Virus record (IMG/VR): IMGVR_UViG_3300033067_001009
Span: 11,905 to 75,904 of that record
Source of the DNA: a virus
Taxonomy: Duplodnaviria > Caudoviricetes
Strand: one strand, 5' to 3'
Length of the DNA: 64,000 nucleotides
Each line of letters starts with the position of its first letter. Position 1 is the first letter of the stretch. Below, in pieces: positions 2,947 to 55,319 of this stretch. The position numbers and the translations under genes were made by a program. Below the pieces are notes generated by a model. The model made no database searches. It saw only the letters and a program-made list of their open reading frames with translations, and was not told where the DNA came from.

Positions 2947-2982
2947 GTTTTTAATACAGGTAACGACACAGGAGACATAGAA

Positions 2983-4401: not shown

Positions 4402-4417
4402 GGTTGAGCAATAGCTC

Positions 4418-4450: not shown

Positions 4451-4511
4451 CAGGGTTTGTATCATTGACTAAAAGTCGAGCGCTAGGTGCGAACCCTGTT
4501 TTCAAATTTTA

Positions 4512-7745: not shown

Positions 7746-7751
7746 TGAGAT

Positions 7752-11012: not shown

Positions 11013-11037
11013 TTCGAGTGTCGACACTCAAAGCACT

Positions 11038-12738: not shown

Positions 12739-12742
12739 GCAC

Positions 12743-12771
12743 TTGCATTACTGCATAGTTTGTAGTAATAT
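12743..12771 (+). promoter_or_regulatory. Sigma70-type promoter
   Basis: TTGCAT-17bp-TAATAT in the intergenic gap; RBS AAGGAG precedes 12826. Confidence 0.55.
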
Positions 12772-12825
12772 TTTGTGAGTACCCAACCCAGCACCTAGCG
12801 CTCGACTCTTTAAGGAGTAACTCCA

Positions 12826-13449: not shown

Positions 13450-14186
13450 TGGCAATTCAAAATCAATATTCGCAGGATCGACCGAGAGTCATTTTCAAGT
13501 ACACGTATCCAGCAGGTGCGGTGTACACGCTAAAGAGGTTTGTCGAGGTGGCTCTCAAGGCTGCGTCAGACCTCTTCATTAACCAAACCGTCGCCAATGC
13601 TGCCGCTCGACTGGCGCTGACCAATATTCTGAGCGGGTATCTGGTCTACCAGACCGATACGACTGCGTTCTGGAAGTTCACCGGCACGAACCCAGCGGTC
13701 GCCGGAGACTGGACGCTGCAAGCCCAGCAGGTAGCTAACCAAGCGGCGAGGCTGGCAATCGCCGCACCACCGATTGGCACCATCGTGTACCAAGTTGACA
13801 CGACCAGCTGGTACAACTACGTCGGCAACCCGAACAACACGGCTCTGAACAATCCAGCTGACAATACACAGTGGTTGATAGTCAACGCCGATATGAGTTT
13901 CACCCAGTACGTGATCGCTTTTCTTAAAGACTTGACGTGGGTTCTCGACGGGTATTCGTCCATAAAGAACGTCGACGGAGCAGCAGTGACGCTGAAAGTG
14001 CTGACCTCATTCGTCCGCAACAGCGACGGGGAGGCTCCGTACATTGCGACCCAGATGACTACCTACGGTACCGACATCGCCCAAAACGCAACCAAGCTAC
14101 TGTACGGTCGGCTTGAGCCGCAAAGACTTGTGCTCTATTGCGCGTCCAACTGTGCTTTGGAATTAGACCTTTGCTTCGGAACATAA
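13449..14186 (+). CDS. Putative virion protein with a tandem duplicated fibre-type module
   Basis: Two copies of VANxAARLA(L/I)...G..VYQ.DTT..(W/Y). Confidence 0.5.
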   Translation: MAIQNQYSQDRPRVIFKYTYPAGAVYTLKRFVEVALKAASDLFINQTVANAAARLALTNILSGYLVYQTDTTAFWKFTGTNPAVAGDWTLQAQQVANQAARLAIAAPPIGTIVYQVDTTSWYNYVGNPNNTALNNPADNTQWLIVNADMSFTQYVIAFLKDLTWVLDGYSSIKNVDGAAVTLKVLTSFVRNSDGEAPYIATQMTTYGTDIAQNATKLLYGRLEPQRLVLYCASNCALELDLCFGT

Positions 14187-25500: not shown

Positions 25501-28500
25501 AGACTATCGGGTCGAACGCTCTTGCGAGATTGACGTACGATCCTAATAGGGAATTAGACAGAGGGTTAGGCAGAGCTATGCTGGCTGCCGGATTCAGCGC
25601 AGGTTTGGTATCGACCGGAGTCACGCTACTCAACACTGTCAGGTATTCCAGACAGATCAAAACTGCGTTAGCGGCCGACCGTGCGAACGGTATCGAGACC
25701 TTGCGTAACTTCGGAAATGGTAACGTGTACCTGTACGGAAAGAAGATCACTGTCACCGACGAGATTCAGCCGCTGATCGACAAGCACACCGAGCTGCACG
25801 ACCGCATCACGACAGCGTACAAGCTGATGGATCGGTTGAAGACGGAAGCACAAACCGTGCCGCTCGAAAAACGAGCCGAGTTTTACAAGCTGATTCAGGA
25901 CATCGCCAAGAACACAGCCAAGGATGTTGTCGAACAACGCAACACGGCACAGGCTATCTTGGATCGCACCAACCCAACCAAACCGGACATCGTCGATACG
26001 ATGACTCCGGAGCAGGTAGCCGAGGTTCGTGAGGAACCGGTGCCGCCGCCCGTCGCTGCGGTCGAGGAAGAACAGAAGAAGTACATCGTTGTCGAGCCGA
26101 TCAACAAGCCCGAAGAGAAAGGGCAGGGTACGTTCGTAGACAATGCTGCCGACATCGAGCAGTCCGGTGTGCCGGAACCGATCTTCAAAGGGGCGTTGCC
26201 GACCGGTGCCGCTCCGGTCGATACGAACCCAGTTCAGGAAACCGCTCCGGAACCTGCGAGTGTCGACACTCAAGGCTACACGTACGATCCGAACAGCCCG
26301 ACACCGTGGCGTGATTTCGTGGAATCCAAAGGTCACAAGTTCAGGGACATCAAAGCAACCAGTCCCGAGTATCCGGCTCTGCGTGACGAGTTCAACAAAC
26401 TCAAGGAAGCGCACACGGACATAGCTCCGGCGACCGAGCCTGTTCAGGAAGACCCGAAACCGATGACTCCACGTCCGACCCAGACACAGACGGAGTATAT
26501 ACAGAAATACGTCGGACTACACGGTGATCTGTTTGCCGACGCTGCACAAGCCGCAGCAGACGAGCACTATGCTGTGGTTAAAGAACACGTAAAGAACGGG
26601 GGTACTATTACCAAAAAGGTGTACGACTCAATGCAGCCGCGACACCAACGTCATTTCGACCAGCATTACAACTCCCGAGGGGATAAGATCACTGCTAACG
26701 CTTCTATCAGTTCAACGACGGCGACCAAGCCGTACCACGTCAGTGTCGGAGATGTTATCCAAGTCGATCTTCCTCACGGAACCCACACTATGAAAGTGAC
26801 GGACGTGGACGGTCGAATGGTGCACGGTCTAAAGTCCGACGCAGACGGCAACACTGTGAAAGAGCGCATCAGTGTCGAGCTGGGCGAGCACAAGGTGACC
26901 AACCTGTCGGCTCCTGAGACCAAGCTCGGCGGGGTGGACAACGCTAGCATCGTCGACGACGGCAAACTGCCCAACTCGCAGTCGGTAAAAGCTGGGGACA
27001 GTATCACGTACGGCAATCAGAAAGCCACGGTCGTCAAGGTCACGAACAAGACCGTCGTTGTTCAGCACGATGGAGACACCAAGACACGCACCATCAAGAA
27101 AGATACGTTCGATGCTTTGCCGGTCGTCAACCACACGGGTCAAGCAGAGGCCGACCAACTGACGCACGGCCGAGAGTTCGGCACCAGCACAGCCACTCCG
27201 GAAGAGGCTGCCGACCGGCAGTGGGAACAGGTGCAGGAAGAGGAGGCCAAGTCACAGCCTGTCCAACCCAGACTGGACGGAGTCGAGACTAAAGAATCTC
27301 CGGAGAATATGGAACCGCACGCTAACGGGGCGACTCCTCTGGAGACGTGGGCAAAGGACAACCCTGACGCTGTACGCGACATCGACACGCAGTACCCAGC
27401 TCCGACCGAGGACGAGATGACAATCGTTAAGCTGTTTGATGATCCCGAGAGCGTCGAGAACTGGGAGAAGTCTCCGGCAGCGTTGTTGAAGATGTTGCAG
27501 AAGCACGATCTGTTGGACGGACTGACAATGTCTGAGGTATCCGACGATCTCAAAGAGGATTTGAAAGAGGCCGAGGATGCAGAAGAACGCCAGCAGATGA
27601 AGCTGGATTATATAACGGAGCAGCTCGGGTACGAGAGCAATCCGTTCGGGGACAAGTACGAAGCTCGCTGGCAAGCGTTGTACGACCGGTACACGGAGAT
27701 ATACAACCGCAACCAGCAGCAAGGTACGGCCACGGAAGTTGCCGCCGAGGAGGCACCGGTATCGGAAGAACCGGCAGCCAAGTTCTATGAGGGCGACGAG
27801 GTTACACTCAAGGACGGAACGGATGCGGTCGTCTCCTCGGTGCTGCCTGACGGCAAGCTGGAGGTCGAGATGCCGGACGGCACACTCGAAACGGTACCGA
27901 TCTCCTCCGTCAAGCCGCAGGTCGAAGAGAACACGGCACCCACGTCCGTCAGCCCCGAGGCATCGATCTACGATCACGACGAGCTGGAAGCCCGTATGGA
28001 TCAGCTGTACAAGGACACTTATCTGGACACTCAGGGTCTGGAGACGATGTACCGTCTGCTGATGTCCGGCCAGCACGACAAGCTCAACGAGTTGCTGACT
28101 CTGATCGAGACCGGCATCGCCCAGACCTCGTATATGGCGAGCGAAAAGCAGCTCAAGAATATCAAGGGCAAGGTCACGGCGAACATCAGAGCGCTGCTGC
28201 GCCTGATCGGTGAGCAGATGTACAAGGGCGACATCGTCGAGATCAACGTCAAGGAAGCGTTTCAGAACTCGTTCGATGCGGTCAAGGCTGCGGTCGAGAA
28301 AGGCTTGATTACCAATCCACAAATCAAGATTGCGCTCGACCAATCTAACCGCACTCTGACGGTGACCGACAACGGTATCGGGATGAACAAGAAAATCATT
28401 CTGGAATCGTTCTTGGTGATTGCCGGAAGCAGCAAGGAAAACACCGACCCGTCCGGAGGTTTCGGAATGGCGAAAGCCCCGCTGCTGTTCGGTAACGATT

Positions 28501-31500
28501 GGGTCGACGTGACGACTATCCGTGACGGTGTCAAGTACACCTTTAGGATTACACCCGAACACGCTGACGGTAACAACGTCGACATCAAGCAGGAGGCTAC
28601 CACGGAGCCGTCAGGAACCACATTGATTATGCGTATCCCTGAGAAAGTCCAGTCAACCAGCGGAGATGAGAAAGATGTGTGGCTGCCTTATGACCTCTCC
28701 CGAATCCAGACACTTAGCAAACCGCTGCTGGGAGACGTGGAGGTGTTGGCAGGTGATTCGTGGGGAGGCGAGACTACGTGGAAGCCGATCACGACGATGG
28801 GTAAACACTTCGACTATTCGCAGATACCGAAGTTCACATCCGTCAACTTCTCTTGGGGGTCTGCCGACATCTACATCGGTACTGAAAAGAAAGACAAGTA
28901 CGATGTCAAACACAACATTTTGTCGAACGGAATCTACCAATTCGACATTATGTTCGGTAAGTACGATAGCAGATTCCCACACGATGTAATGGTCGACGTG
29001 CATCCGAAAGCCAAGGCTGGAGATGCCGCGTACCCGTTCGACATCCGGCGCGAGGGGTTCAACCATCTCATCGAAAAAGACGTTGCCGCTCTGAAAGCGT
29101 ACATCGAGACTATCGGGTTGATAGAGCAGGTCGAGGACGAAGCCGAGACGTTCAAGTCTATGAAGCAGCTGCCGAGGGTCAAAGTCAACGGGCTGGCGAT
29201 GACGACCGAGCAGAAAGAAGCGGTCAAGGATACGGTCAAGAAAGAGAACGCTCCGGTCGAGAAGCCGCAGGTCAAGTACGACAACCTCCAAGTCAAGGAC
29301 GGTGTCATAAGCACGACCGATAAGACCACTGGCAAGACAGTCATTCTGATCGACACCAACGAGGGTAAAGACACCGATGAGGGTGACGGCGAGGGTGAGC
29401 GTAAAAAAGCATTCGACAAATCGTTCGATCCGGACAAGAAGCTCAAGACGGCAGCGGATATGCTGCACGACATCGGCATCGACCCCTCGCAGCCGGTGTT
29501 CCACAACAACACGAACATCGACTGGATGTCATTCCATCCGGACGCTCCGGAGTTCTTTTCGCAGATGGGTTCGCTGATGTCCGATCTGAAAGAGGAGATC
29601 GCCAAGCTCGGAGACTACGTCTCGAAAGCAGTCAAGCCGGATTTCTATTCTGGCATCTCCATCGACAAGAGCTACGCAGGTGTCAATATCAAGATACCTT
29701 TCAGCGGTATGTTCATCAACCCGTTCTACGTGGCAGCCGGTGTCGGGACGGACTTCAACGGTATCGTCAAGTCTCTGTACCACACGATGCTCCACGAAGC
29801 TGTACATTTCTATGTACGCGCACATAACGACTCGTTCGCGTCAGGACTGTGGACTATCGATTCCAATATGGCGACGACCGGCGCACACGCCAAGATGACT
29901 GTCAAGCTCGAAATGGTATTGAAGAAACATTTCGAGATGTACAAGGAGATGAAGAAAGAGTATGACAAATTCTCAACAAAAAATATTAGAGGCTCTCTGG
30001 AGGGGGAACGCAGCGAAAGCGATGAATCGTTTGAGCCAGAACTCAGCGACGAGCAAATCGAACAAAGGTCAGAACGGTTTTGGGGGAAACTCTGGAATCG
30101 ATACGCTAATGCTACAAGTGAACCAGTCGTTAGCGTTAGCAACGCAGAAGAGGGACGCAAGGACAGCGAACGACTTCCAAGCGATAAAAAACAAAATCAA
30201 ATCGTTCCCGACAAACAAAGCTCTGTTGACATATCTAAACTCTCTGTCGGTGACCAAGTAACTTTCCGGTCGGGAGCTAAAGGCTTCGTCGTCTCGGTAG
30301 AGGACGGCAAGGTCACGGCCGTATTGCAGGACGGCACGTTCAAGGAACTCAAGGCGATCAAGCCGAAGATCGAGAAGAATCCGAGTACGGATCAGAACAA
30401 GACCACCTTGAGTGTCGACACTGCAAGCGCTCCGGCAGAGCCGACCGATCCTGTCACGTCACCATACGAATCGCTGGAGGATGAGGAAGTCCACAATATG
30501 CTCATCAACGACATCAACCTGCCACTCCAGCAGCAGGTTCAGTCAGGATACGGGGGTACCAAAGTATCGAGCACCGATGTCATCAACAGCTTCCGTAAGG
30601 TATTGGAGCAAATCGGCAACACTGTTATCCGGATGGGGCGCACCGGCAACATACAAGCCGAGGGCATCTACAAGCCGAGGGTCGAGGTCATCCGGCTGGG
30701 CAGAGCCAACAAGATCACGGCTGCCGCGCACGAGGTCGGACACGCGATCCAGAAAGCCGTGTTCGGTGCTGTATCCGGCAGATCGTTGGGTGGGCTGTCT
30801 CCGATTGTCCGTCGCCAGCTGATCGATCTGGGTCGTGAGCTGTACGGGGATCGTGTACCGAAAGGCGGGTATGCCGCCGAGGGGTTTGCCGAGTTCATCC
30901 GGATGGCTCTGACCGGAGACACCACAACCGTCAACGTGTCGGCTGTCGAGGACTGGTACAACAACGAGTTCCTCCCTAACAACCCTGAACTTGAGACCGT
31001 ACTGTGGGATGCCAGATCGACGGTAGACGACTACATCAACCAAGGTGCCAAGAGCCGGTCGGATGCCAATATGCCGGTAAAGAAATCCGTCAAGGAACGA
31101 CTGGCCGGACTCAGGAACTTTTTTAGAAAGATTCCGACTTGGATGAACGAAGACCTGACACCGTTGCTGCGGCTGACCCGACGTGTCGAATCTATTACCG
31201 GACTCAAGCTGTCGTTCGGAGAAGACCCGTACTCGGTTGGCTCTGCCTTACGTGGCCTTGCTCCATCCCGAGTGGCCTATATGGCGTACGAGAATATGGT
31301 CGATGCGAACGGCAATATAGTAGGCAGACCTCTGATAGATGCAACCCAGCTCGTTCGTGACTCGGAGCGAGACTTCACGCATTATCTGTGGGCGCGGCGT
31401 ACTATCGAACTGCTCGACCGAACCAAGACGCTCGACGACGGAACCGTCGTACCCGATCCGAAAGCCAGCGGTATGTCGAGAGAGGATGCCGAGTTTCTGA

Positions 31501-34169
31501 TCTCCGAGTTCGACACTCAGTACCCGCAGTTCGAGATCGCCGCCCAGCAGGTGTACGACTGGAACCGTGGCGTTCTTGAGTATGTCCGTCAAATGGTTCC
31601 CGACCTCGACGAATCGATCCAGCGGGTCTTGGACAGTTCTCAGAACTACGTTCCTTTGATGCGTGTGTTTGATGACGTGGAAGAGGATGTGTTGGCGGGT
31701 AAGTACAGCGGGTTCGGGAGTAATTCTCTTAAGACTTTGAAAGGGTCTGACAGGAGGGTGAAGTCGATCTTTCCGCAGCTCTTGGCAAATGCCGAGCGGC
31801 TCATTCAGATGGCGCACAAGCGCAAGGTGCTGGACACCATCGTCAGTCTGGGCGAGATCGATGGCGTTGGTCAGCTGATCGAAGAGGTGCCGCAGTCCCA
31901 GCGTCCGAACAACGTGACCATCGAGCAGATCGCCAGAGGTCTGACGGATGCCGGTGTCGATCTGGACGGCATCGATCTGGATCAAGCGATCACGTATTTC
32001 ACACCAGCCCAGCGTCCGCAAGGTAAAGACCCGATTGTACCGCTCGTCAGGGACGGCGCGATTCGCTGGTACTACGTGAATGCCGAGCTGTACAACACAC
32101 TTTCCGGCCTGGACATACACAAACTCCATCCGATACTGGATTGGACGTTCGGCGTGTCGACACGTGCGTTCCGTCTAGGAACCACCGGACTCAAAGCATC
32201 GTTCTCTTTGTTCACTAATCCGATGCGCGACATCCCGACTCTGTATATGCAGACCCAGACTAATAATCCGGCACGGCTGGTGATGGAGTATTTCAGGGCT
32301 ATTGGTTCGGCGCTCAACCCTAAACGGTTGGTAGGAGAGAATACCACTGCACTTGATTTAGTGCACCGTCTCGGTGTCTCTATGTCACAGCCTCTCGGAA
32401 CTGATGAGGCAATCACGACCAAGGCATCCAAGGAACTATTCAAGTCCCCGTTCAAACGGGTCGTCACCCAGCCTATCACGATGCTGCGCGAACTGTTGAG
32501 CACACCGGAAATGATCCCACGTGAAGCAGAGGTGCGAGCTATCGCCAAAGAGATAGGTTACACTATCGGAACCCCGATGGATTTCAATACGATGGTACAG
32601 CTGAGTCTCGCCGGTCGTCGGGCGACTGTCGACTTTGCGGCGATGGGTACGGTGGGCAGAGTAATGAACCAGATGATTCCGTTTTTCAATGCGAATATTC
32701 AGGGATCACGGTCGTTCATCCGTGCTTACCAAGCACGTCCCGTGCGTACTACTTTAACCGGATTGGCGGTGATGACGTTGCCGACTTTATGGCTCTGGTG
32801 GAAGTACAAGGACGAGGATTGGTGGCGCAAGATGCCGACCCGCGAGAAGTTCCAGTACTGGCACTTTCGTGTCGGTGACGAGGTGATCCAGATTCCCAGA
32901 ACTCAGGATTGGGGAGGTGTGTTCGCGTCTGTCCCCGAAGCTCTGCTCGACGGGTGGTATCAACGTGACCCGAAAGGTGTGGAGAAATCAATGGGTTACC
33001 TCTTTGACAACGTCACTCCTGACATTCTCCCGACGATTGCCAGAGCCGCTGTCGAGCAGCTCGGCAACCGCATCGATTACTTCGACCGGCCTATCGTACC
33101 TACCGGCGATCTTAATAAACCGGCAGCGGAGCAGTACAGCCCGTACACCTCGGTGTTCGCTAAGTGGTTGGGTGCTCATCTTCCGAACTGGAAAGTCCTG
33201 AACATCCCGATCAACAGCCCTCGCCGGATCGATGCGCTCATCCGGACGATGGCTGGCGGGGTCGGTAGCGATCTGGCGCATCTTTTGGACATTAGTAAAA
33301 AGGATTTGACGTTAAGTGATCTGCCGGTTATCGGCAGAGCATTCAGGCAGGGTGGCGTGGAGGGTGTCGGCAGCACCGATGTCGAGAACTTCTACGATGC
33401 TTTGGATGAAGCTAAGACCAGAGCGGCGAGCGAGGCGAATCCCGAGTCCCCGCAGGAGCAGCAGCAGCGTCAGCTTCTCGAAGACACCAGCAAGACCATC
33501 GCTGTCGTCAGGAAGCTGGCTGTCGAAGCTCCGACCGTGAGAGAGCGGGAGCGGTACTCGCGTCTCGTCAACGCGCTGGCCGATTTGGCAGTCAACCGCA
33601 AGCTCGACTATACGACCGAGCAGAACCGGAAGCTGCTGCCGGAGGACATCGACCTGCTCAAGCAGACCGAATCCAAGATCGCAGAAGTGACTCAGGTGAC
33701 CGGCGCGTTCGATTCAGGAAAGGTCGAGGACATCAAGGAGCTGCCGAAGAGAGATCAGCGGGAGGTTTTGAAAGAGGGGCTGCTGACCGATCAGCAGCAG
33801 AAGTTCTCGTCTCTGACGAATGTGGAGAAGCTGTTCAAGTTTCGAGTGTCGACACTCGAAGACAAGGCACGGCAGTCGGCATTCATCACGAAAGCGATCA
33901 ACGATCTGAAAGCGAAGCGGGACAAGCAGCCGAACGAACAAGCATTGATTGGTGAATTGGAACGTGCTCAGTCGAACTTCGATGCGGAATTATCGAAGCA
34001 GCCGGAAGATGAGCGACGGAGGTTGGAACAGATCGACGACGAGACCGAGAAAGCTGTTTCTGTGGGAGGCAGAACTCGTCGCAGGAGTAGGCCAGCAAGA
34101 GAGGGTCGCCCCAATAAGAACGACCCTCTGAACAAACTGTTCAAGTTCTACGAGCAGAAACAGAACTAG
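22569..34169 (+). CDS. Giant polyvalent virion/ejection protein: lytic transglycosylase, SH3/KOW-like modules, GHKL ATPase, two HExxH motifs, LPD38-like C-terminal region
   Basis: SLT: AMMAKESSG..AKGYMQV..ANITAGVRY..ALAAYNAG. GHKL: KEAFQNSFDA, VTDNGIGM, GGFGMAK. Metallopeptidase-type motifs: LHEAVH and AHEVGH. LPD38-like: QMIPFFNANIQG..WHF..IPR. Confidence 0.85.
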   Translation: MFDEEAVNAAANALLKMSPQTEATFSAPDVVPEPVPEPTPVPQPEPMPPIPQNNDDEEDVQTRTKRIAKREGVDPKLILAMMAKESSGKKKARSWANAKGYMQVTPDKIKTYYKENPNADPYDAEANITAGVRYMKRLLKRYGGDVRKALAAYNAGEKQALDRPDWEKYAETWSNDKEVQAGRKPRGKSDPTNTLNYVNHIYSNYKSGKTFTDVGYQIDDEAVNAAANALKNMPPPKVDEDAINAAAAALSKSQPPATTITPTEGTTPTPETYPRTDVQGFDKQGNPATVAKFGDTPIPPVTPTSVDTQTDDALPEVAQKTEGITNPPEFEFWDKTTGQQFWVDPDRKGLKDSQIRLLPVPNVVKTPEDKAKQDNTPRIIEKDPDGNYYFVQTGQVATKQPTVVQKVRKVPTKVPVSQPSGDGQIRSPLEELKTTGQTKLGSATVKMVGQPDGDTIKVEDEDGETYKIDAKTGDVEDESMAEVADTFSFNRVPLNLRPTTSLEDAKTQATYQIASQMKSKYGIAVQDFAAWQANKGFIDFDTKGEANPDSFYQPYTTDESTPSTELGKSLLTTNTYSITRREMAELQQFSARQSKAREDAVLQMIASGQFPTPETLNRLEVDLAKIANDRRDDYMMAREKQAVSLEDFDRFKRESYMRGMDDYEASITAGTKLGWYTDKFAQTELENWRKEKLNAQSRVDAAYGGDQNPDNAVRIQLEKRAAVGVLQQRAQQFGTITNLVNIRLKMQQEEAAAKQAIEDRMNQLWGGGTLPSLAYFGEATKNVVFNFGKGLYSTVISDMVKGAVTITKPIADGASMLLGVEGTRNLNVSDNIVYRAMQTVDDFVDKAKPSTNDDFRQTDSPAGFFVSDIPQGVASSLGFLLPSVSKYPRVAIALYSTVGMVSNGYEEAKAAGADEIDAQRYGIVSGGLLGWTEIFGSSEALIRLNRGSGGALWRQFLKKAFAEAAKEVPEEIFQEGVQTIGSNALARLTYDPNRELDRGLGRAMLAAGFSAGLVSTGVTLLNTVRYSRQIKTALAADRANGIETLRNFGNGNVYLYGKKITVTDEIQPLIDKHTELHDRITTAYKLMDRLKTEAQTVPLEKRAEFYKLIQDIAKNTAKDVVEQRNTAQAILDRTNPTKPDIVDTMTPEQVAEVREEPVPPPVAAVEEEQKKYIVVEPINKPEEKGQGTFVDNAADIEQSGVPEPIFKGALPTGAAPVDTNPVQETAPEPASVDTQGYTYDPNSPTPWRDFVESKGHKFRDIKATSPEYPALRDEFNKLKEAHTDIAPATEPVQEDPKPMTPRPTQTQTEYIQKYVGLHGDLFADAAQAAADEHYAVVKEHVKNGGTITKKVYDSMQPRHQRHFDQHYNSRGDKITANASISSTTATKPYHVSVGDVIQVDLPHGTHTMKVTDVDGRMVHGLKSDADGNTVKERISVELGEHKVTNLSAPETKLGGVDNASIVDDGKLPNSQSVKAGDSITYGNQKATVVKVTNKTVVVQHDGDTKTRTIKKDTFDALPVVNHTGQAEADQLTHGREFGTSTATPEEAADRQWEQVQEEEAKSQPVQPRLDGVETKESPENMEPHANGATPLETWAKDNPDAVRDIDTQYPAPTEDEMTIVKLFDDPESVENWEKSPAALLKMLQKHDLLDGLTMSEVSDDLKEDLKEAEDAEERQQMKLDYITEQLGYESNPFGDKYEARWQALYDRYTEIYNRNQQQGTATEVAAEEAPVSEEPAAKFYEGDEVTLKDGTDAVVSSVLPDGKLEVEMPDGTLETVPISSVKPQVEENTAPTSVSPEASIYDHDELEARMDQLYKDTYLDTQGLETMYRLLMSGQHDKLNELLTLIETGIAQTSYMASEKQLKNIKGKVTANIRALLRLIGEQMYKGDIVEINVKEAFQNSFDAVKAAVEKGLITNPQIKIALDQSNRTLTVTDNGIGMNKKIILESFLVIAGSSKENTDPSGGFGMAKAPLLFGNDWVDVTTIRDGVKYTFRITPEHADGNNVDIKQEATTEPSGTTLIMRIPEKVQSTSGDEKDVWLPYDLSRIQTLSKPLLGDVEVLAGDSWGGETTWKPITTMGKHFDYSQIPKFTSVNFSWGSADIYIGTEKKDKYDVKHNILSNGIYQFDIMFGKYDSRFPHDVMVDVHPKAKAGDAAYPFDIRREGFNHLIEKDVAALKAYIETIGLIEQVEDEAETFKSMKQLPRVKVNGLAMTTEQKEAVKDTVKKENAPVEKPQVKYDNLQVKDGVISTTDKTTGKTVILIDTNEGKDTDEGDGEGERKKAFDKSFDPDKKLKTAADMLHDIGIDPSQPVFHNNTNIDWMSFHPDAPEFFSQMGSLMSDLKEEIAKLGDYVSKAVKPDFYSGISIDKSYAGVNIKIPFSGMFINPFYVAAGVGTDFNGIVKSLYHTMLHEAVHFYVRAHNDSFASGLWTIDSNMATTGAHAKMTVKLEMVLKKHFEMYKEMKKEYDKFSTKNIRGSLEGERSESDESFEPELSDEQIEQRSERFWGKLWNRYANATSEPVVSVSNAEEGRKDSERLPSDKKQNQIVPDKQSSVDISKLSVGDQVTFRSGAKGFVVSVEDGKVTAVLQDGTFKELKAIKPKIEKNPSTDQNKTTLSVDTASAPAEPTDPVTSPYESLEDEEVHNMLINDINLPLQQQVQSGYGGTKVSSTDVINSFRKVLEQIGNTVIRMGRTGNIQAEGIYKPRVEVIRLGRANKITAAAHEVGHAIQKAVFGAVSGRSLGGLSPIVRRQLIDLGRELYGDRVPKGGYAAEGFAEFIRMALTGDTTTVNVSAVEDWYNNEFLPNNPELETVLWDARSTVDDYINQGAKSRSDANMPVKKSVKERLAGLRNFFRKIPTWMNEDLTPLLRLTRRVESITGLKLSFGEDPYSVGSALRGLAPSRVAYMAYENMVDANGNIVGRPLIDATQLVRDSERDFTHYLWARRTIELLDRTKTLDDGTVVPDPKASGMSREDAEFLISEFDTQYPQFEIAAQQVYDWNRGVLEYVRQMVPDLDESIQRVLDSSQNYVPLMRVFDDVEEDVLAGKYSGFGSNSLKTLKGSDRRVKSIFPQLLANAERLIQMAHKRKVLDTIVSLGEIDGVGQLIEEVPQSQRPNNVTIEQIARGLTDAGVDLDGIDLDQAITYFTPAQRPQGKDPIVPLVRDGAIRWYYVNAELYNTLSGLDIHKLHPILDWTFGVSTRAFRLGTTGLKASFSLFTNPMRDIPTLYMQTQTNNPARLVMEYFRAIGSALNPKRLVGENTTALDLVHRLGVSMSQPLGTDEAITTKASKELFKSPFKRVVTQPITMLRELLSTPEMIPREAEVRAIAKEIGYTIGTPMDFNTMVQLSLAGRRATVDFAAMGTVGRVMNQMIPFFNANIQGSRSFIRAYQARPVRTTLTGLAVMTLPTLWLWWKYKDEDWWRKMPTREKFQYWHFRVGDEVIQIPRTQDWGGVFASVPEALLDGWYQRDPKGVEKSMGYLFDNVTPDILPTIARAAVEQLGNRIDYFDRPIVPTGDLNKPAAEQYSPYTSVFAKWLGAHLPNWKVLNIPINSPRRIDALIRTMAGGVGSDLAHLLDISKKDLTLSDLPVIGRAFRQGGVEGVGSTDVENFYDALDEAKTRAASEANPESPQEQQQRQLLEDTSKTIAVVRKLAVEAPTVRERERYSRLVNALADLAVNRKLDYTTEQNRKLLPEDIDLLKQTESKIAEVTQVTGAFDSGKVEDIKELPKRDQREVLKEGLLTDQQQKFSSLTNVEKLFKFRVSTLEDKARQSAFITKAINDLKAKRDKQPNEQALIGELERAQSNFDAELSKQPEDERRRLEQIDDETEKAVSVGGRTRRRSRPAREGRPNKNDPLNKLFKFYEQKQN
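33841..33860. repeat. 20-bp perfect palindrome TTCGAGTGTCGACACTCGAA
   Basis: Inside the giant ORF, read as FRVSTLE. Confidence 0.95.
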
Positions 34170-40354: not shown

Positions 40355-41980
40355 CTAACCTCCTGACGATAAGTCCTTTAGATGGTGGTAGATAGCCCAC
40401 GTCTTCGGAAAGCACTGCTCGACGATCTTGTCGACAGCCTTGGCGTACTGCTGGATTTCCCACTGGGCAGCCGGATCATCACGGAGCGACAGGAACGCCA
40501 ACCAGTTCCTGAGAACGGCAGACGCTCGCATCTGCGAATATCTGCCGACCGGAATCACGACCCTCGCCAGCTCTTTCGGAATACCGCAGGTCAGACCGTA
40601 CTGGTATAACTGCTCCGCATCATTGTAGAACGCAGCCAGAGCGTTCTCCCAGTGGGTAGCGTTGTTGTCGTTCAGCTCGGCAGCACCGATAGCGACACCG
40701 GCTTGCTTGTTCGTCGTACTTGTCAGGTACAGTCGCTCGCGTGTCGGCTCATAGTTGACATCCGGCAGCGGCGCGTACCGTGCAGACATCTCGTTGTATG
40801 AATTATGAATCAACAAGTTATCTGCCGCAAACCAGTTGTTTCCAGTTACCGAAATGTCGAAAGTGTCTTTCAAACCCAGAGCGTTAATGGATAGTATCTT
40901 AACCGGAACTTCTCTTAATCGCTTTCTACCACCGTTAAGTTGACTATCATCTGCGTTGTCTTGAGCAGTGCCGAGTTTCAGATTCAGCAATCTGTTATCT
41001 AAAGGGTTGTCGTTCTTATGTAGAACCCATTCGCTAGACCTGCCTAAGAATGCGTTAGCAACCAGCACCGAGACCTGTACCGTCTTGTTGTTAATTGAAA
41101 CTACCGCTCTGTGGTCGGTGTTCACTGTTTGAGTTTTGAGGTAGGGCTGCCTCTGCTTTCTGACTCCTCTGGTTGACCAGTAAGAACGTACCCTGCCGAG
41201 ATTAGATACTTCGTATCCTTCGGATACTTCTCGCCACTCTTCGTTCATTATTTCTTCATTACTGATAGCAGGGAACACCGATGCCGCACCTCTGTCACCA
41301 TTTTGTATCATCGCCATCACTTCCGTAATACCGTCCTTTAGCCTACCCGAACCGTAAGGAGTCTTGAACAAATGGTCTTCTGACACCTCTACCTCTCCGT
41401 ACTTGGTACGAACCAAGTACACCTGTTTTTGCCCTGTGTGCCAAGCGCCGGTTACATTAACAAACCCGTCATTGTTTCGTAACTGCATTGCGGAAATCCT
41501 TGCTTTGGTTTTAGGGTTTAAGAACCCAGAAACCACGTCCAGCATAGATTTTCTGTAAGCCTTTCCGTCAACAGGTCTGTTAAATACCAACGGTGTACTA
41601 CCTGAAACGCACTGTGTCCGATGACGGTGCCATTCCCTGAACACGAAGATCGGGGCGCGAACTTCGATAATCATTCCGGCGAACTCGAACGGTGTCGAGT
41701 GTCGATTCTTAAACATAAAGTTCAGCAGATTTGTGTCGTTGGCTAGTTTGCCGAAGCACTGCGCCCCAGTACGGTCATTGTGGGCTGCTATCTTAGCTAT
41801 GAACTGCTTATCGCAGTCAGGACAGTAACACACGTCCCACCCACGGAAGTTCCCCTGTGTCGATTGCCTCGCAGCCTCGATGATTCCGGCCTCGTCGACT
41901 CCGGCATCACCCCCGCCCCAGTACTCGACCAGCCTGACGAACCCGTGGTCAAGCACCGGTATGTTGATTTCTTTCTTCAT
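40355..41980 (-). CDS. thyX: Flavin-dependent thymidylate synthase, intein-interrupted
   Basis: HGFVRLV, HSTPFE and REWHRHRTQ|intein|SYNEMSARY (RHRxxSxxxxSxR motif). Confidence 0.92.
   Translation of the reverse strand: MKKEINIPVLDHGFVRLVEYWGGGDAGVDEAGIIEAARQSTQGNFRGWDVCYCPDCDKQFIAKIAAHNDRTGAQCFGKLANDTNLLNFMFKNRHSTPFEFAGMIIEVRAPIFVFREWHRHRTQCVSGSTPLVFNRPVDGKAYRKSMLDVVSGFLNPKTKARISAMQLRNNDGFVNVTGAWHTGQKQVYLVRTKYGEVEVSEDHLFKTPYGSGRLKDGITEVMAMIQNGDRGAASVFPAISNEEIMNEEWREVSEGYEVSNLGRVRSYWSTRGVRKQRQPYLKTQTVNTDHRAVVSINNKTVQVSVLVANAFLGRSSEWVLHKNDNPLDNRLLNLKLGTAQDNADDSQLNGGRKRLREVPVKILSINALGLKDTFDISVTGNNWFAADNLLIHNSYNEMSARYAPLPDVNYEPTRERLYLTSTTNKQAGVAIGAAELNDNNATHWENALAAFYNDAEQLYQYGLTCGIPKELARVVIPVGRYSQMRASAVLRNWLAFLSLRDDPAAQWEIQQYAKAVDKIVEQCFPKTWAIYHHLKDLSSGG
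40802..41611 (-). mobile_element. Intein (270 aa) with NUMOD4/HNH-type homing endonuclease
   Basis: Cys1 (CVSGSTP), VSEDHLF block B, terminal HN then Ser+1. Inner YEVSNLGRVRS and VLHKNDNPLDNRLLNL. Visibly more AT-rich than the flanks. Confidence 0.9.
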
Positions 41981-42422
41981 TTTTAATCTCCTCCTCGATT
42001 TGTTCGACTGCCACATCGAGCGGCAGTGCTATGGTTCCGCACACGATTCCGAGCGCATTACTCAGCAACGTGTCCAGCTCGAATACAGCACCGGCCTTTT
42101 CCCACATCTCGATCCGCGCCGGACGCATATCGCTGAACCGATTTTTGTTTACCCGTTCTTGGTAGCGCCGGATGTAGGTCGATGCTTTCTTAAGATCGTC
42201 GATCTTGTTGTCGTGCTTCCGACCGGCGCGGCAGATGTACTTTGCCGCATTACCAAGCCGGAAGTCCAAACGAAAGAACTCGATCACCTCGTCGACGAAC
42301 CACCCGTGGTAGTAGTTCCGACCGCTATGAGTGTCGACACTCGAAGCAGCCGCAGTACCTGCTGCGTTCTTCCAGCAGTAACCCTCGTCCTTTCCGCATT
42401 CTTCACATATTAACTTTCCCAT
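41949..42422 (-). CDS. DUF3310-like (T7 gp1.7-like nucleotide kinase family) protein
   Basis: HSGRNYY...FRLGNAAKYICRAGRK...DDLKKASTYI. Confidence 0.7.
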   Translation of the reverse strand: MGKLICEECGKDEGYCWKNAAGTAAASSVDTHSGRNYYHGWFVDEVIEFFRLDFRLGNAAKYICRAGRKHDNKIDDLKKASTYIRRYQERVNKNRFSDMRPARIEMWEKAGAVFELDTLLSNALGIVCGTIALPLDVAVEQIEEEIKNEERNQHTGA

Positions 42423-50570: not shown

Positions 50571-51539
50571 TTATAATTTGACGGGACGAGCCTTGACTTC
50601 GACCCAGTTCGAGATCGAGCTGGTGATCTCGGACAACCCACGTTCGATGGCGACCTTGGTTTCGAGGTTGTTGCGGATCGCGTCGGGCGACACGCCGGAG
50701 AGAAGTTGCTGCGCCTTGGTCACCGCTTCCCGCATCTCGGTGTCGTTCGTCAGGTCTTTCGCCGGAAACGTGGCGAGGAAGTCACGGACGGTTTCGACGT
50801 AGCCGGACTTGAACGTCTTGCGTTCTCCACGTCCGATCCCTCTGATCTTGTCGAGCATCGTCTCGACGATCTCGACGAACCCGACCCGCAGAGCGCCTCT
50901 GATCTGTGCCATATCTTCCTGTACACGTGCTCTGTCCTCTTCGACCAGCTTGGCGTGGAGCTTCGGGTCAATGTCCTTGAGTTTGTCCGGCACGGAGACG
51001 GATAGCAGCCGGTATGAGATCGAGAACTTGGAGCGGATCGCTTCCTTGCTCGGGTAGTCGGACTGCTTGAACACGGACGGGTTCCGCATCTCGACCTCAC
51101 GCACCGCACGATCCCAGTTGTCGATCAAGTCGTTGACCAGTCGACCCCGCTCTTTCTCGTACAGTTCGATCATCTTGAGAGCGTGACCGACCAGCATATT
51201 CGGCAGCAGCACCATCCCGTTACCGGCGAATGCGCTGCGGAGGGAGAGAGCGTTGAGTCGTCGCTTCATATGAGAGTCGTGCTTCGAGATCGCTTCGACG
51301 TACGTCTTGTCGATCAGTCTGGTGGTAGTCGAGATCAGATTGGTGTCGATACCCTCGTCGTTGATAAGCTCGTCGGAGTTGACGGTCTTCTTGAACTCCG
51401 TCCCGTTGATGGTAAATTTTAACAGCATCGTGTTGTTCGGGATGACCTCACGATCTGCGGTGTTGATAACCTCGGTCGGTGTTTCTGCGAATGATTGGAA
51501 CGAATCGAAAAATAAGTTGTCATTAGCTTCGGTAGCCAT
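50571..51539 (-). CDS. DUF3150-like protein
   Basis: Helical 322 aa; FKQSDYPSKEAIRSKF and LTNDTEM...AQQLLSGVSPDAIR pattern. Confidence 0.5.
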   Translation of the reverse strand: MATEANDNLFFDSFQSFAETPTEVINTADREVIPNNTMLLKFTINGTEFKKTVNSDELINDEGIDTNLISTTTRLIDKTYVEAISKHDSHMKRRLNALSLRSAFAGNGMVLLPNMLVGHALKMIELYEKERGRLVNDLIDNWDRAVREVEMRNPSVFKQSDYPSKEAIRSKFSISYRLLSVSVPDKLKDIDPKLHAKLVEEDRARVQEDMAQIRGALRVGFVEIVETMLDKIRGIGRGERKTFKSGYVETVRDFLATFPAKDLTNDTEMREAVTKAQQLLSGVSPDAIRNNLETKVAIERGLSEITSSISNWVEVKARPVKL

Positions 51540-51556
51540 AATTGTAATCTCCTAGT

Positions 51557-51823
51557 TTAGCACTCTTGAAATACTGCCGCTAACGCCGCAGCGATCTCGT
51601 CGGCAGCCTTGACCACGTCCGTATCTCCGAATATCTCGGCATACCCTCCGACAGAGTATCCGAGGAGCTGGTAGAATTGCTCACGGTCTTCCTGCGGGAA
51701 CGGTATGGCCTCAATCATATTTAGGTCAACACGGCTGTGGGTAGCCAATAAGAACCGGACAATCTTGTTGACCTTGAACCGAGCGGTTCCGTGCTCGTCC
51801 AAGTACACATCCTGCATAGGCAT
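51557..51823 (-). CDS. Hypothetical phage protein
   Basis: PMQDVYLDEHGTARFKVNKIV...QLLGYS pattern. Confidence 0.5.
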   Translation of the reverse strand: MPMQDVYLDEHGTARFKVNKIVRFLLATHSRVDLNMIEAIPFPQEDREQFYQLLGYSVGGYAEIFGDTDVVKAADEIAAALAAVFQEC

Positions 51824-51825
51824 AG

Positions 51826-52203
51826 TTATTCGCCCTCCTCTTGGCCTTGAGTGTCGCCACTCAAAGCAAGCCTGTTAAAGAATCTCTTACGGCGCTCACG
51901 GTCTCCGTCGTTGACCTCCGACCAGCCGCATCTTACCTTGGAGATCGGCTCCTCGCCATCTTCCAAGAACAGTTTATTGCGCCACCAGATCAACCCCAGC
52001 TCCCGTTCGAGCGACGGTAGGTTCATCCGGCCATAGTATTCGGCAGACGTGGGGTTCTGCGGAAAGCGACGGAGGCAGATGACGGCCAGCAGCGCACGGT
52101 CGACAGTTATGTCGAACTGCTTGCGGACATCTTCCATCTCACGAAAGGGGACACTCTCCGTCTCCGTCCCCCGTTCGCTGAACAGTACGACTTCGTACCT
52201 CAT
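51826..52203 (-). CDS. Hypothetical protein
   Basis: 125 aa; contains a one-mismatch repeat copy at 51847. Confidence 0.4.
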   Translation of the reverse strand: MRYEVVLFSERGTETESVPFREMEDVRKQFDITVDRALLAVICLRRFPQNPTSAEYYGRMNLPSLERELGLIWWRNKLFLEDGEEPISKVRCGWSEVNDGDRERRKRFFNRLALSGDTQGQEEGE

Positions 52204-52478
52204 AACACGTTGTCCTCCAGATATTTCTTTTCCGCAGCAAGCGCTTCGCTGCGGAGCTTGAATCCGCTGAGTACGACATCGTGACCGGACGGGGACATAT
52301 CAGCTTCCCAGCATCCTGCATCATTGTTGAACTCGACGTTAGAGGCTCGGCGTGTAACCGAGCCTCCAAGTTCCATCAAACCGACCAGCCGGTCGTCGTG
52401 GATGAATTTAAGATCGCCGTCGCCGGTCACCGTCAGTATGTGGTTACTGCCGAAGCCGGAGTTGTTCGTGCTGTTCAC
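52200..52478 (-). CDS. Small protein of the AAA/DUF1257/DUF2997 cluster type
   Basis: RRASNVE...WEADMSP...FKLRSEALAAE. Confidence 0.55.
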   Translation of the reverse strand: MNSTNNSGFGSNHILTVTGDGDLKFIHDDRLVGLMELGGSVTRRASNVEFNNDAGCWEADMSPSGHDVVLSGFKLRSEALAAEKKYLEDNVL

Positions 52479-52632
52479 TTTGCTTCATCTCCCCTGTTTC
52501 CACCCGCTTCTCGACGGTGCCGAGAGCGTCCTCGATGTCTTTCGTCAGATCGAGACACCGCTTACCTTTGACCCCTTTGACCTCAATCGAGAGATCACCT
52601 TTGGGCGACACATCCATAATCATTTCAGCCAT
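52444..52632 (-). CDS. DUF2997-like protein
   Basis: 62 aa: IMDVSPKGDLSIEVKGVKGKRCLDLTKDIEDALG. Confidence 0.75.
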   Translation of the reverse strand: MAEMIMDVSPKGDLSIEVKGVKGKRCLDLTKDIEDALGTVEKRVETGEMKQSEQHEQLRLRQ

Positions 52633-52645
52633 TGCGTTTATCCTC

Positions 52646-53032
52646 CTACGATCTCGCAAACAGACGGACGGTGCCGTCGTTCTGCTTCTCACGAACGACT
52701 CGGAATCCCTTTCGTTCGGCCTGTGCCGTGGCTCCGGCGATGGTGTACTCCTGACGGAGCTTGTTGCAGTTCTGCCCGACGACGGGAAGCAACCCGCCGC
52801 TCGACCAGTAGTCGAGCTTGAGCGAGTAGGTCTCACCGTCCTTGCTCTTGACGATACCGATCCCGTACTGGGCGTTGGGGAATGTGATCGAATGCTCGCA
52901 CTTCGCCAGCTTGCCGCCGAACGTGACAAACTTTTTCGCGTCACGGTTTAAGACCCCGCCTAATTGCTTGGCGGCATCTTCCAAGTAGTCCAGCGATTTG
53001 AACTCCGTCTTGACATTTGTAATGTGACTCAT
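52646..53032 (-). CDS. DUF1257 (Ycf35-like) protein
   Basis: MSHITNVKTE...L..A...LG; IGIV...YSLKLDYW; LRQEY....GFRV...Q.DGTVRL. Confidence 0.75.
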   Translation of the reverse strand: MSHITNVKTEFKSLDYLEDAAKQLGGVLNRDAKKFVTFGGKLAKCEHSITFPNAQYGIGIVKSKDGETYSLKLDYWSSGGLLPVVGQNCNKLRQEYTIAGATAQAERKGFRVVREKQNDGTVRLFARS

Positions 53033-53241
53033 TGTTTACCTCCGAAAGCTGCCGCCGCAGTCACGATGACCACGATCAGCAGAATGATGTAGGGGAGACG
53101 CGACTTGTCTCTCCCCCGCTTGTTACGTGGGTCAGCGGAAAGCTGACGGGTCGCCCACGTCTTAAGAACTAATTGTTTCTTGTGATCCGGAACCTTGTCC
53201 CAGTCCCAATCCTTTTTAATCATAACCACTCCCACCGGCAT
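53029..53241 (-). CDS. Small membrane protein
   Basis: C-terminal TM segment. Confidence 0.4.
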   Translation of the reverse strand: MPVGVVMIKKDWDWDKVPDHKKQLVLKTWATRQLSADPRNKRGRDKSRLPYIILLIVVIVTAAAAFGGKQ

Positions 53242-53385
53242 CCGTTACGCTCCAAGCGGAGCGGTATGTCTTTCACACTGCTGCCGGATATTATCTTTCT
53301 TAAAATAGGGGCGCAAGACCATATCGACCACACCCCGTTCGATTTAAGAAAGACTATGTGGGCGCAGAAGTTACGTCCGTACACC

Positions 53386-53625
53386 CTAAGAGACTTCATC
53401 ATACTTGACGAACTCCGGTTCGATAGACCAGTAAGCGCCACGCTCCTCGAAGAACACGACCGGCGTACCACCGCTGGAGAGAAACGCCACACTCCGCACC
53501 GTCATATATTCATACTCGGCACTGGGGTGGTTGATGCTTCTCCAGTAGACACCGGAACCAGGGGGAAATTGTTTGTTGAACTTGTCGACCAAGGCTTGCG
53601 CCTGTTTAGTTGATAGTCTCGGCAT
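53386..53625 (-). CDS. Small SH3-like hypothetical protein
   Basis: FNKQFPPGSGVYW...TVRSVA..LSSGGTPVVFF. Confidence 0.5.
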   Translation of the reverse strand: MPRLSTKQAQALVDKFNKQFPPGSGVYWRSINHPSAEYEYMTVRSVAFLSSGGTPVVFFEERGAYWSIEPEFVKYDEVS

Positions 53626-53633
53626 CGTATCTC

Positions 53634-55319
53634 CTATAAGATCAGCTTGGTCTTAGCCGAGCTGTCGGTACCAGCCGTCTTTCTGGTCGGCTCGATCCTG
53701 TTCATACGGTACACGCCTTTGTGGGTAGCGTCAAGGAACCGTCCGTCTGCTTCCTTGCACAGTAATTGTATCTCATCACGAGCCGTCACGGCAACCGGAG
53801 TGATGCGTGTTGCGGTCTCCTCGATCCCGCAGTTGAGCAGGTCGGCAAGACGGCAGCACGTTTCGATCTCTGCCCCTGTCCAGCCCTCGTCGTTGAGACC
53901 GGCGTTCTTACGCAGCTCATCCACATACACCCGTTCGTTCCCTGCCGAGACCAGCTCGTACTTGCGGAGGTAGATGTCCCAGATCGCATCACGCTCGGCC
54001 TTGCTCGGCAGGGCAAAGAAGTAGGTGCCGAGATTGTACCGGCGTTTGAGTTCGGGCGGGAGCTGCTCGATGCGGTTGCACGTGGCGATCCACATAATAC
54101 CGCCGTCGTCCCCGCCGATTGACCGGATGGTCTTGAGTGCGTTGCGGAGATTGGTCTCGCTCGAACCGACGAGCGAGTCTTTCATACCGGACAGGTCGAG
54201 GTGAATCGTGATCGCGTCCAGCTCCTCACCGAATGCCTTGGCGAGAGCCGACTTGCCGCACCCGTACACACCGGTCAGCATCAGTCCGTACGATCTGGTT
54301 TCCTGCATCTCGGTCAGCAGACTGCCGAGCATATTGCCGGAGACTCCCGACGTGTCGGTACCCTGTGATCCTGCCGTCGCCTTTTCGATCTCATCCACGA
54401 ACAGCAGCGTCTTGACTTTGAACTTGGGACTGTTCTTGAGACGCAGCAGGTATTCCTTGAGGGAATCGAGACCTCCCAGTGCGCTGAATCCTTGCCCTGT
54501 GCTGGGCTGTACAGACAGGCCACGCTGTTGATTCAGTGTCTGGATGGCGTTCTCCCGTAACCGGTCGAGATGAATGCCCCGATTGTCCATCGCAAGGAAC
54601 AGAATCTGCCGGACTTGAAAGAGCGGGACACCCCGCAGCGCTTCGCGCATCGAGAGGATAAGACTATCGGTCAGCACGAACTTCTCGTCGCCACGGTTCG
54701 CGTCGAAGTTTTCCTCGTACGACTGGTATGCCTGTTGTATCTCGTGTACGATCTCGTCCTCGACTGGGAGCGGTGCCGTGATCCGCTGGACGTGTTCCTT
54801 GAGTTCGGGTGGCACGTTGAAGTCGATGCCGACGAAGATCAGCGTGATCCGCGCAAGGCCGAGCGCATCACGGCTGTTCATCAGCAGCTGGACGGTCGAC
54901 AGGTAGTCCTCGTTCTTCTCTGATAAGAACCGGTCGCCGGTAAAGAACACGACCGCAGTACCCAGACCCTGCGGGTTGCCGCCACGGGTATCGTCGAGCA
55001 GGTGGTCAGCAATGTCGGTGATCGCTTTGATTGCGAGCAGAGAGTTGCGCGTATCCAGCTTATCCTTGGTCGCCTTGACCGTGACCAGCAGACGTTCGGC
55101 CTCTCCGAAGTTGGCCGTCAGACCATTGATCTCCAGACCCCCGACGCAGTCCCACGTGTAGATCAGTTCCTTGACCGGCGATGTCCCCTCTCTGATCCCG
55201 ATGGTTTGCAGAATGCTGGCGACCGTCGCCGGTTCGTCGACCGCACCGTCGACCAAAATCATCGGTACGTTCCGATCACACATCAGCGTGATCGCACTGC
55301 TAAATGGTAGTTTACTCAT
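53634..55319 (-). CDS. Ycf46-like AAA+ ATPase with permuted motif order
   Basis: Degenerate N-terminal AAA-like domain; GGLDSLK; LLFVDEIEK (Walker B) precedes LTGVYGCGKS (Walker A); IATCN, LPPEL and WTGAEIE follow. Confidence 0.85.
   Translation of the reverse strand: MSKLPFSSAITLMCDRNVPMILVDGAVDEPATVASILQTIGIREGTSPVKELIYTWDCVGGLEINGLTANFGEAERLLVTVKATKDKLDTRNSLLAIKAITDIADHLLDDTRGGNPQGLGTAVVFFTGDRFLSEKNEDYLSTVQLLMNSRDALGLARITLIFVGIDFNVPPELKEHVQRITAPLPVEDEIVHEIQQAYQSYEENFDANRGDEKFVLTDSLILSMREALRGVPLFQVRQILFLAMDNRGIHLDRLRENAIQTLNQQRGLSVQPSTGQGFSALGGLDSLKEYLLRLKNSPKFKVKTLLFVDEIEKATAGSQGTDTSGVSGNMLGSLLTEMQETRSYGLMLTGVYGCGKSALAKAFGEELDAITIHLDLSGMKDSLVGSSETNLRNALKTIRSIGGDDGGIMWIATCNRIEQLPPELKRRYNLGTYFFALPSKAERDAIWDIYLRKYELVSAGNERVYVDELRKNAGLNDEGWTGAEIETCCRLADLLNCGIEETATRITPVAVTARDEIQLLCKEADGRFLDATHKGVYRMNRIEPTRKTAGTDSSAKTKLIL

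Follow-up and report, generated by a model that had tools for sequence, protein, structure and literature searches.

The window analysed here is a 64,000-nucleotide stretch of a Caudoviricetes virus (IMG/VR record IMGVR_UViG_3300033067_001009, positions 11,905 to 75,904), and its minus strand carries at 53634-55319 a gene for a Ycf46-like tandem AAA+ ATPase with a degenerate first AAA-like domain (D1) and a permuted second domain (D2). This assignment draws on the open reading frame (ORF) itself, Pfam matches, an AlphaFold2 (AF2) model and VIA-align structural alignments. The list of ORFs and the translation give a single frame of 561 aa that is open throughout.

Motif order and block exchange in D2

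Inspection of the translation reveals the following elements, all encoded on the minus strand. D1 (residues 1-262; 54534-55319) is a degenerate AAA-like domain with a lid and without a P-loop, supported by a hidden Markov model (HMM) match and by alignment to D1 of p97, Cdc48 and Rix7. The G.GK[ST] motif is absent from D1, and strands 3 and 4 survive there as remnants only, as they do in relatives with the normal motif order; these remnants (AVVFFTGD, strand-3-like, and TLIFVGID, strand-4-like) are accompanied by the domain's own lid. Ycf46-like proteins combine a degenerate N-terminal domain with a single AAA domain after it in a chain of about 500-560 aa, and this is the architecture seen here.

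D2 begins with a linker and helix 0 (residues 277-299; 54423-54491; from alignments and DSSP) that include GGLDSLK at residues 282-288, where G282 and G283 are invariant or nearly so in family alignments, and continues through a new junction to a moved strand. The moved unit (residues 303-343; 54291-54413; from HMM, shuffling and DSSP) consists of strand 3', the Walker B motif LLFVDEIEK (residues 305-313, with D309/E310 encoded at 54390-54395), a pore-loop-2-like loop rich in Gly, Ser and Thr (GSQGTDTSG) and helix 3', which ends in MQE and extends up to residue 340. Next come strand 1, Walker A, helix 1, strand 2, pore loop 1 (SLVG) and helix 2 (residues 344-403; 54111-54290; from HMM and Pfam), with the P-loop GVYGCGKS at residues 350-357 (54249-54272), about 40 residues after Walker B, and SLVGSSE at residues 382-388. 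From helix 2, a short Gly-rich linker leads directly into the sensor-1 strand IMWIATCN (residues 408-415; 54075-54098). This strand 4 with its sensor-1 Asn and the arginine-finger helix LPPELKRRYN (residues 420-429, of which LPPELKRR is 420-427) together span 54033-54098, as judged by HMM and conservation, and are followed by the helical lid of D2 (residues 455-545; 53685-53957; DSSP helices 466-524), which has a WTGAEI motif and A483 at the sensor-2 position.

No second Walker B (hhhhDE) lies C-terminal to the P-loop in the 561-aa protein, and the collinear order of a classical AAA+ domain (Walker A, pore loop 1, Walker B, sensor 1) is not found. To our knowledge, the order of Walker A, Walker B and sensor 1 is treated as universal among AAA+ proteins. 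The original prediction, made by a model from the letters of this DNA, had claimed a Walker B segment ahead of Walker A at about 54410-54300 within an uninterrupted frame; direct motif reading of the translation bears out the order, the coordinates and the frame alike.

Two annotated relatives have the normal order, L338C_050 of Rhizobium phage vB_RleS_L338C and gp65 of Aeromonas phage HJ05. BLASTP against L338C_050 is collinear over residues 160-525 of the window protein except for two reciprocal gaps of about 40 residues, where the window protein has its surplus before the P-loop and L338C_050 has its surplus between helix 2 and sensor 1. Alignment of residues 300-344 with residues 357-395 of L338C_050, which hold Walker B and its helix, scores 78 against 26.5 ± 4.0 for shuffled sequences (z = 12.9), and when the two blocks are returned to the normal order in silico, the local score climbs from 138 to 256 against L338C_050 and from 173 to 274 against HJ05 gp65. 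A profile HMM built from 119 normal-order relatives matches the window protein in four significant pieces, of which the middle two are exchanged: HMM positions 84-274 fall on residues 90-292 (independent E-value 3e-7), positions 354-392 on residues 305-342 (1.4e-9), positions 293-349 on residues 344-400 (3e-15) and positions 394-474 on residues 407-492 (1e-15). The Pfam AAA profile (PF00004) is split in two on the window protein (E 3e-13, 51 bits), with the best stretch placing residues 346-400 on profile positions 1-55; in contrast, it covers the normal-order relatives in one stretch (positions 1-129 of 131) with 103 bits. Collinear profiles thus under-score permuted proteins, which are left as "hypothetical" or as a bare "ATPase".

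At the level of sequence, the difference is a clean swap of two adjacent D2 blocks. In the D2 core of the phage branch, block B, about 40 residues that comprise strand 3 and its Walker B motif, pore loop 2 and helix 3, now precedes block A, about 60 residues that comprise strand 1, the P-loop, helix 1, strand 2, pore loop 1 and helix 2. New termini inside the domain, the mark of a circular permutation, are not seen: helix 0 comes first and the passage from strand 4 to the lid comes last. Since the domain ends are unchanged, the permutation is internal and not circular. The earlier proposal of a beta-alpha unit transposed within the AAA+ fold gains support from the four-piece HMM match, the shuffle z and the swap-back scores.

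Predicted fold and position of the moved unit

The full-length AF2 model, generated with a 137-row alignment, has a predicted local distance difference test (pLDDT) score of 93.1 and a predicted template modelling score of 0.87, and D2 modelled alone reaches a pLDDT of 92.6 with identical secondary-structure elements. The whole chain structurally matches the type II AAA ATPases p97/Cdc48, Rix7 and Drg1 in Foldseek (E about 1e-11) and VIA-align (Z 18.3 to p97/Cdc48 D1-D2, 408 residues at 4.7 Å), which makes residues 1-262 D1-like and residues ~277-545 D2. AlphaFold modelling, proposed as a check at the outset, gives a confident model that matches p97/Cdc48-type tandem AAA ATPases. The predicted model shows the alpha/beta core and helical lid of an AAA+ protein. 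DSSP places D2 helix 0 at 285-296, the moved strand at 304-308 and two helices at 311-318 and 326-340, followed in the model by strand 1 at 344-350, helix 1, strand 2 at 370-374, helix 2 at 386-402, strand 4 at 408-414, strand 5 at 432-435 and the lid; the modelled order from the moved strand onwards is strand, helix, helix, strand, helix, strand, helix, strand.

When the D2 model is compared with 48,161 representative solved chains, the best matches are classical-clade AAA proteins, namely Rix7 D2, Vps4, spastin, Pex1/6, NVL and FtsH (Z 14-15.6, root-mean-square deviation (rmsd) 2.7-3.5 Å, 193-218 of ~265 spanned residues aligned), with Rix7 D2, Vps4 and spastin at Z 15.6, rmsd 2.9-3.2 Å and 204-218 of about 265 residues. 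About 50-60 D2 residues are left unaligned in every structural match, a shortfall of the size expected for the model if a sequential aligner skips an out-of-order unit. None of the 48,161 representatives aligns over the full D2 span, and such a chain may still exist elsewhere.

To place the moved unit, 483 family sequences (effective number, Meff, 316) were subjected to mean-field direct coupling analysis (DCA) over residues 270-545. The analysis recovers its controls, which are strand 1 with strand 5 (348-435), strand 2 with helix 2, and helix 0 with helix 1. Among the top L/2 couplings, 34 connect residues 303-341 with the rest of D2, and 27 of these reach elements that border strand 3 and helix 3 in a normal AAA+ domain (strands 2 and 4, helices 2 and 4, pore loop 1 and the linker between helix 2 and strand 4), for which the random expectation is 27% (binomial p = 2e-10). 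For the moved strand, the couplings with strand 2 keep a single register (304-370, 307-373), and those with strand 4 are 303-408 and 306-410, and also 311-412. Very strong couplings (304-404, rank 3, and 303-405) link the start of this strand with the last part of helix 2, a proximity that marks the site of chain continuity in normal-order proteins. The partners of helix 3' are helix 2 (329-388, 337-399, 341-399) and pore loop 1 (327-380, 329-377). Indirectly, the strand couplings point to a sheet in the AAA+ order 5-1-4-3-2, where the Walker B strand lies between strands 4 and 2 and the Walker B acids face the P-loop. From this coevolution we conclude that the moved unit keeps its ancestral position between strands 2 and 4 and that the wiring alone has changed.

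Only three connections are rerouted in this arrangement, from helix 0 to strand 3, from helix 3 to strand 1 and from helix 2 to strand 4. Helix 3 would lead to strand 1 where it formerly led to strand 4, and helix 2 would lead to strand 4 where it formerly led to strand 3, each a shift of one position in the 5-1-4-3-2 sheet; helix 0, formerly leading to strand 1, would lead to strand 3, a shift of two positions. The new junctions would start at a common sheet edge, with crossovers that are all right-handed and helices on their original faces. By known AAA+ topology, such short strand shifts and right-handed crossovers would explain how the swap is tolerated. The junction before strand 1 is short (about 3-5 residues) and includes an invariant G345, and the linker before strand 4 is Gly-rich, 4-7 residues long and conserved.

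It is also conceivable that the segment carrying DEIEK lies outside the P-loop domain that follows it, either because it supplies Walker B to another AAA domain upstream or because it is donated in trans within a domain-swapped ring, and DCA couplings, in which within-chain and between-chain contacts are mixed, would accommodate both arrangements. However, D1 has its own strand-3/strand-4 remnants and lid, so the segment does not belong to D1. In addition, only ~3 residues separate helix 3' (ending at 340) from strand 1 (starting at 344), and together with the invariance of G345 this ties the moved unit tightly to the same domain. The single-chain AF2 model reaches pLDDT 97-98 over residues 331-380, and D2 alone gives the same elements. 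We regard a separate or trans-donated segment as very unlikely. Its upstream-domain form, named beforehand as an outcome that would refute the transposition, is excluded by the D1 remnants and by coevolution of the block with elements of the C-terminal domain.

Spread, activity and origin of the permuted family

A local misassembly or a chimeric contig could create such a block order in a single sequence, but the order is found throughout the family. All 120 best word-search homologues have hhhhDE ~48 residues before the P-loop position. An exhaustive HMMER search over 1.84 billion representatives gives 4742 representative clusters at E<1e-3 and 861 at E<1e-30; among the best 150 of the 4742, nearly all match in one collinear stretch, and the two-stretch exceptions include intein-bearing members. 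Relatives are encoded on at least 480 viral contigs, at least 549 stretches of bacterial genomes or metagenome-assembled genomes (MAGs) and at least 575 metagenome stretches, and the loci examined, which come from unrelated samples, number 80 each for viral, genome and metagenome sequences, with a 22-row alignment as the query for the genome contigs. A strict motif-order test is passed by 434 of the 488 collected sequences, while 52 fail solely through a degenerate motif or a truncated sequence; only 2, the canonical ATPases of loci L247 and L248, have the normal order. Single-protein scans of viral contigs (P0113, P0090) return 5 loci, 2 of them normal-order relatives. The permuted order is present as well in gp103, annotated "ATPase", of the isolated and fully sequenced Tunturiibacter phage Tunturi_3 (PP885686.1).

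Given hundreds of independent assemblies and an isolated phage, together with an open frame and invariant catalytic residues, misassembly is excluded as the source of the block order, and we assign it a practically negligible chance. The homologue search for Walker B upstream of the P-loop, suggested with the original prediction, has thereby returned a large family, and the assembly error that the same prediction named as its possible undoing has fallen away.

The bacterial-genome matches (L084-L163) are mostly Acidobacteriota MAGs (Bryobacterales, Terriglobia). Some of the carrier contigs are 1-4.7 Mb long, so many of these copies probably lie in prophages or integrated elements.

Conservation was counted in 486 sequences of about 31% mean identity. 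E310, K356, N415 and R427 are 100% conserved, position 309 is D in 478 sequences and E in 8, position 357 is S or T in all, K313 is conserved but for one aligned sequence (R), and position 426 is R in 460 (95%). The Walker A pattern GxxxxGK[ST], the Walker B pattern hhhhDE and a polar sensor-1 residue at the end of strand 4 are all present, and the catalytic residues are intact, as had been claimed from the one sequence. The accompanying remark that the arginine-finger region is atypical is partly right: the second arginine of R-x-G-R-(F/L)-D is absent family-wide, position 429 being T, K, S or N, while R426 and R427 are kept.

The strongest coupling within D2 (rank 1) joins R426, at the arginine-finger position, with A483, at the sensor-2 position in the lid motif TGAEI. 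This pair is R/A in 442 sequences, S/R in 19 and A/R, E/R or Q/R in 5 together, and position 483 is R in 24 of the 25 aligned sequences with a non-arginine 426. The arginine appears, from these sequences, to have moved between positions 426 and 483 in a subclade, and the reciprocal nature of the relocation suggests selection on gamma-phosphate contact. The same exchange is the sole hint of ring assembly with an inter-subunit ATP site. Two homologues carry inteins at functionally central D2 sites: in P0236 (896 aa), a LAGLIDADG intein starts directly after the sensor-1 Asn position, and in P0252 (810 aa), an HNH-containing intein lies at or adjoins the P-loop. Inteins tend to favour functionally critical sites.

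These features bear on whether the permuted D2 still binds nucleotide but has lost catalysis and serves as a scaffold or switch, the rewiring having broken motor function and the family having been kept for another role. Loss of hydrolysis would fit the missing second classical arginine finger, the presence of A rather than G just before the P-loop lysine in many members (278 A versus 179 G) and a pore loop, SLVG, without an aromatic residue, though the last is shared by the normal-order relatives. However, E310, N415 and R427 are needed for hydrolysis rather than binding and do not vary across the 486 sequences, the compensatory 426/483 exchange argues for selection on the gamma-phosphate site, and the inteins target the P-loop and sensor 1. 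A dead scaffold is very unlikely in our judgement. D2 would most likely still bind and hydrolyse ATP at an inter-subunit site, like classical AAA rings.

The relation of the two orders was analysed with IQ-TREE on 46 permuted and 14 normal-order proteins, whose blocks were re-ordered for alignment only. In the unrooted tree from which the normal-order L247 protein was left out, a single branch separates permuted from normal-order proteins (Shimodaira-Hasegawa approximate likelihood ratio test, SH-aLRT, 99), a topology compatible with a single origin. Duplication intermediates (A-B-A-B, B-A-B or A-B-A) are found in none of the 488 sequences; apparent second "P-loops" in some collected sequences proved to be the GGLxx(A/I)K(S/T) motif of helix 0. 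The likeliest origin would be an event fixed a single time, in which A-B was duplicated in tandem to A-B-A-B and the outer A and B were then lost; since no intermediates were found, duplication and loss are a model and not an observation.

At a probability of roughly 0.88, we read the window protein as a member of a large, mostly phage-borne Ycf46-like (COG0464) branch with a degenerate D1 and a catalytic D2, in which the core blocks are exchanged and the fold is kept. Several points weigh against this reading. A medium coupling, 307-432, reaches strand 5 and is inconsistent with the canonical sheet; DCA is blind to whether a contact lies within or between subunits; the flanking elements counted in the enrichment test were chosen by textbook AAA+ topology and not from a measured contact map; and the evidence for the strand order of D2 is indirect, combining coevolution, secondary-structure order and partial superposition. 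To these are added the family-wide absence of the second finger arginine and a tree that is unrooted and holds only four normal-order lineages. It is likely that the exchange is an ancient, once-arisen and non-circular permutation of the AAA+ core, derived from normal-order Ycf46-like ATPases and defining an undescribed active family of at least 861 clusters (50% identity, E<1e-30).

Gene neighbourhood and relation to known systems

Downstream of the ATPase gene and on its strand, the interval 50571-53625 holds, in order, two small ORFs, DUF1257, DUF2997, a 92-aa ORF, two further ORFs and a DUF3150-like gene. The DUF1257 gene (Ycf35-like; 52646-53032) matches Pfam PF06868 with E 5e-7, above the gathering score, and the DUF2997 gene (52444-52635) matches PF11211 with E 8e-14. 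The 92-aa ORF (52200-52478) has no family assignment, is traced by iterated HMM and always adjoins DUF2997; the 322-aa DUF3150-like product (50571-51539) matches PF11348 with E 3e-5 and 23.8 bits, just below the cut-off of 24.9. Iterated HMMs find DUF3150 beside the permuted ATPase in 74 of the 80 viral loci, DUF1257 in 68, DUF2997 in 51 and the 92-aa ORF in 40, with the module genes nearly always on the ATPase strand. Most of the 80 genome loci share the module, and DUF3150 is present in 38 of the 43 that extend over 9 kb or more. A neighbourhood of DUF1257 (Ycf35) and DUF2997, as expected of a Ycf46-like gene, is therefore present in the window and conserved in related loci. Normal-order phage ATPases also adjoin DUF1257 (L002, L003 and L248) or DUF3150 (L247), so that the rewired protein has kept ancestral partners. 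The permuted ATPase would most likely act with the co-inherited DUF1257, DUF2997 and DUF3150 proteins in early or middle infection.

The window is otherwise phage-like, with a DnaB-type helicase, a family A DNA polymerase, Erf, ParB and thymidylate synthase encoded on the ATPase strand. The longest contig recorded for the ATPase measures 75.9 kb. A 3866-aa ORF at 22569-34169 on the plus strand has an N-terminal lytic transglycosylase domain and weakly matches internal virion and tail lysin proteins, and its product is probably, on these matches, an ejected internal virion protein; its identification as an N4-type virion RNA polymerase was dropped, as PHROGs gave only transglycosylase and internal-virion-protein matches. 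A 553-aa ORF at 40355-42016 on the minus strand has thymidylate synthase matches split by an HNH endonuclease region (residues about 236-414); it appears to encode a thymidylate synthase with an HNH element either inserted in it or fused to it. Five large ORFs on the plus strand at 1369-16573 (525, 472, 689, 582 and 811 aa) have no PHROG match at E<1e-5 and are presumably structural.

Few motor modules have been studied as well as the AAA+ domain. In the full-text literature outside subscription-only papers, we find no AAA+ domain described in which Walker B precedes Walker A, and nothing on the permuted ATPase family and its module DUFs in phages; the paper on the Tunturi phages contains nothing on a permuted Walker arrangement, and the full-text literature on Ycf46 offers no defined mechanism. 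If our reading is true, the family would be the first AAA+ lineage with an altered chain topology and a ready system for studying how much such motors depend on connectivity, on the order of folding and on the link between pore loop 2 and the ATP site. That a large natural family keeps its fold and catalytic residues despite three rerouted connections would mean that beta-alpha units need not follow one set order. Pairs of permuted and normal-order homologues, matched down to their partner genes, would provide material for studies of folding, allostery and design. The analysis also flags a widespread phage module (ATPase, DUF3150, DUF1257, DUF2997) that is shared with the unexplained ycf46/ycf35 pair of cyanobacteria and plastids.

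Among known proteins, the normal-order Ycf46-like ATPases of phages and mobile elements (JGI "SpoVK/Ycf46/Vps4 family"), represented by L338C_050 and HJ05 gp65, come closest. Like the window protein, they have about 550 aa, a degenerate N-terminal AAA-like domain, the motifs GGLxxLK, SLVGxSE and DE(I/V)(D/E)K...DSGVS...MQE, a sensor-1 N followed by LPxE(L/F), and a DUF1257 neighbour. They differ in that the Walker A block precedes the Walker B block. Unlike the permuted family, normal-order relatives also keep the full R-R-G-R-L-D arginine motif, and they lie on the other side of the branch with SH-aLRT 99. Cyanobacterial and plastid Ycf46, which has the normal motif order, would share the tandem degenerate-plus-active architecture, and as with Ycf46 and Ycf35, the window ATPase is linked to DUF1257 and DUF2997 genes.

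At the level of structure, p97/Cdc48, Rix7/NVL and Drg1/AFG2 share with the window protein the stacking of two AAA-like domains per chain, and the window D2 superposes on p97 D2 with Z 16, rmsd 2.7-3.0 Å and 26-28% identity. Unlike these proteins, the window protein has no N domain, its D1 has no P-loop and the connectivity of its D2 is permuted. A non-standard motif order with a preserved fold is known elsewhere among P-loop NTPases, in the YlqF/RsgA-type GTPases (G4-G5-G1-G2-G3). In those TRAFAC GTPases, however, the change is a circular permutation with new termini, in contrast to the internal exchange of blocks within an ASCE/AAA+ domain described here.

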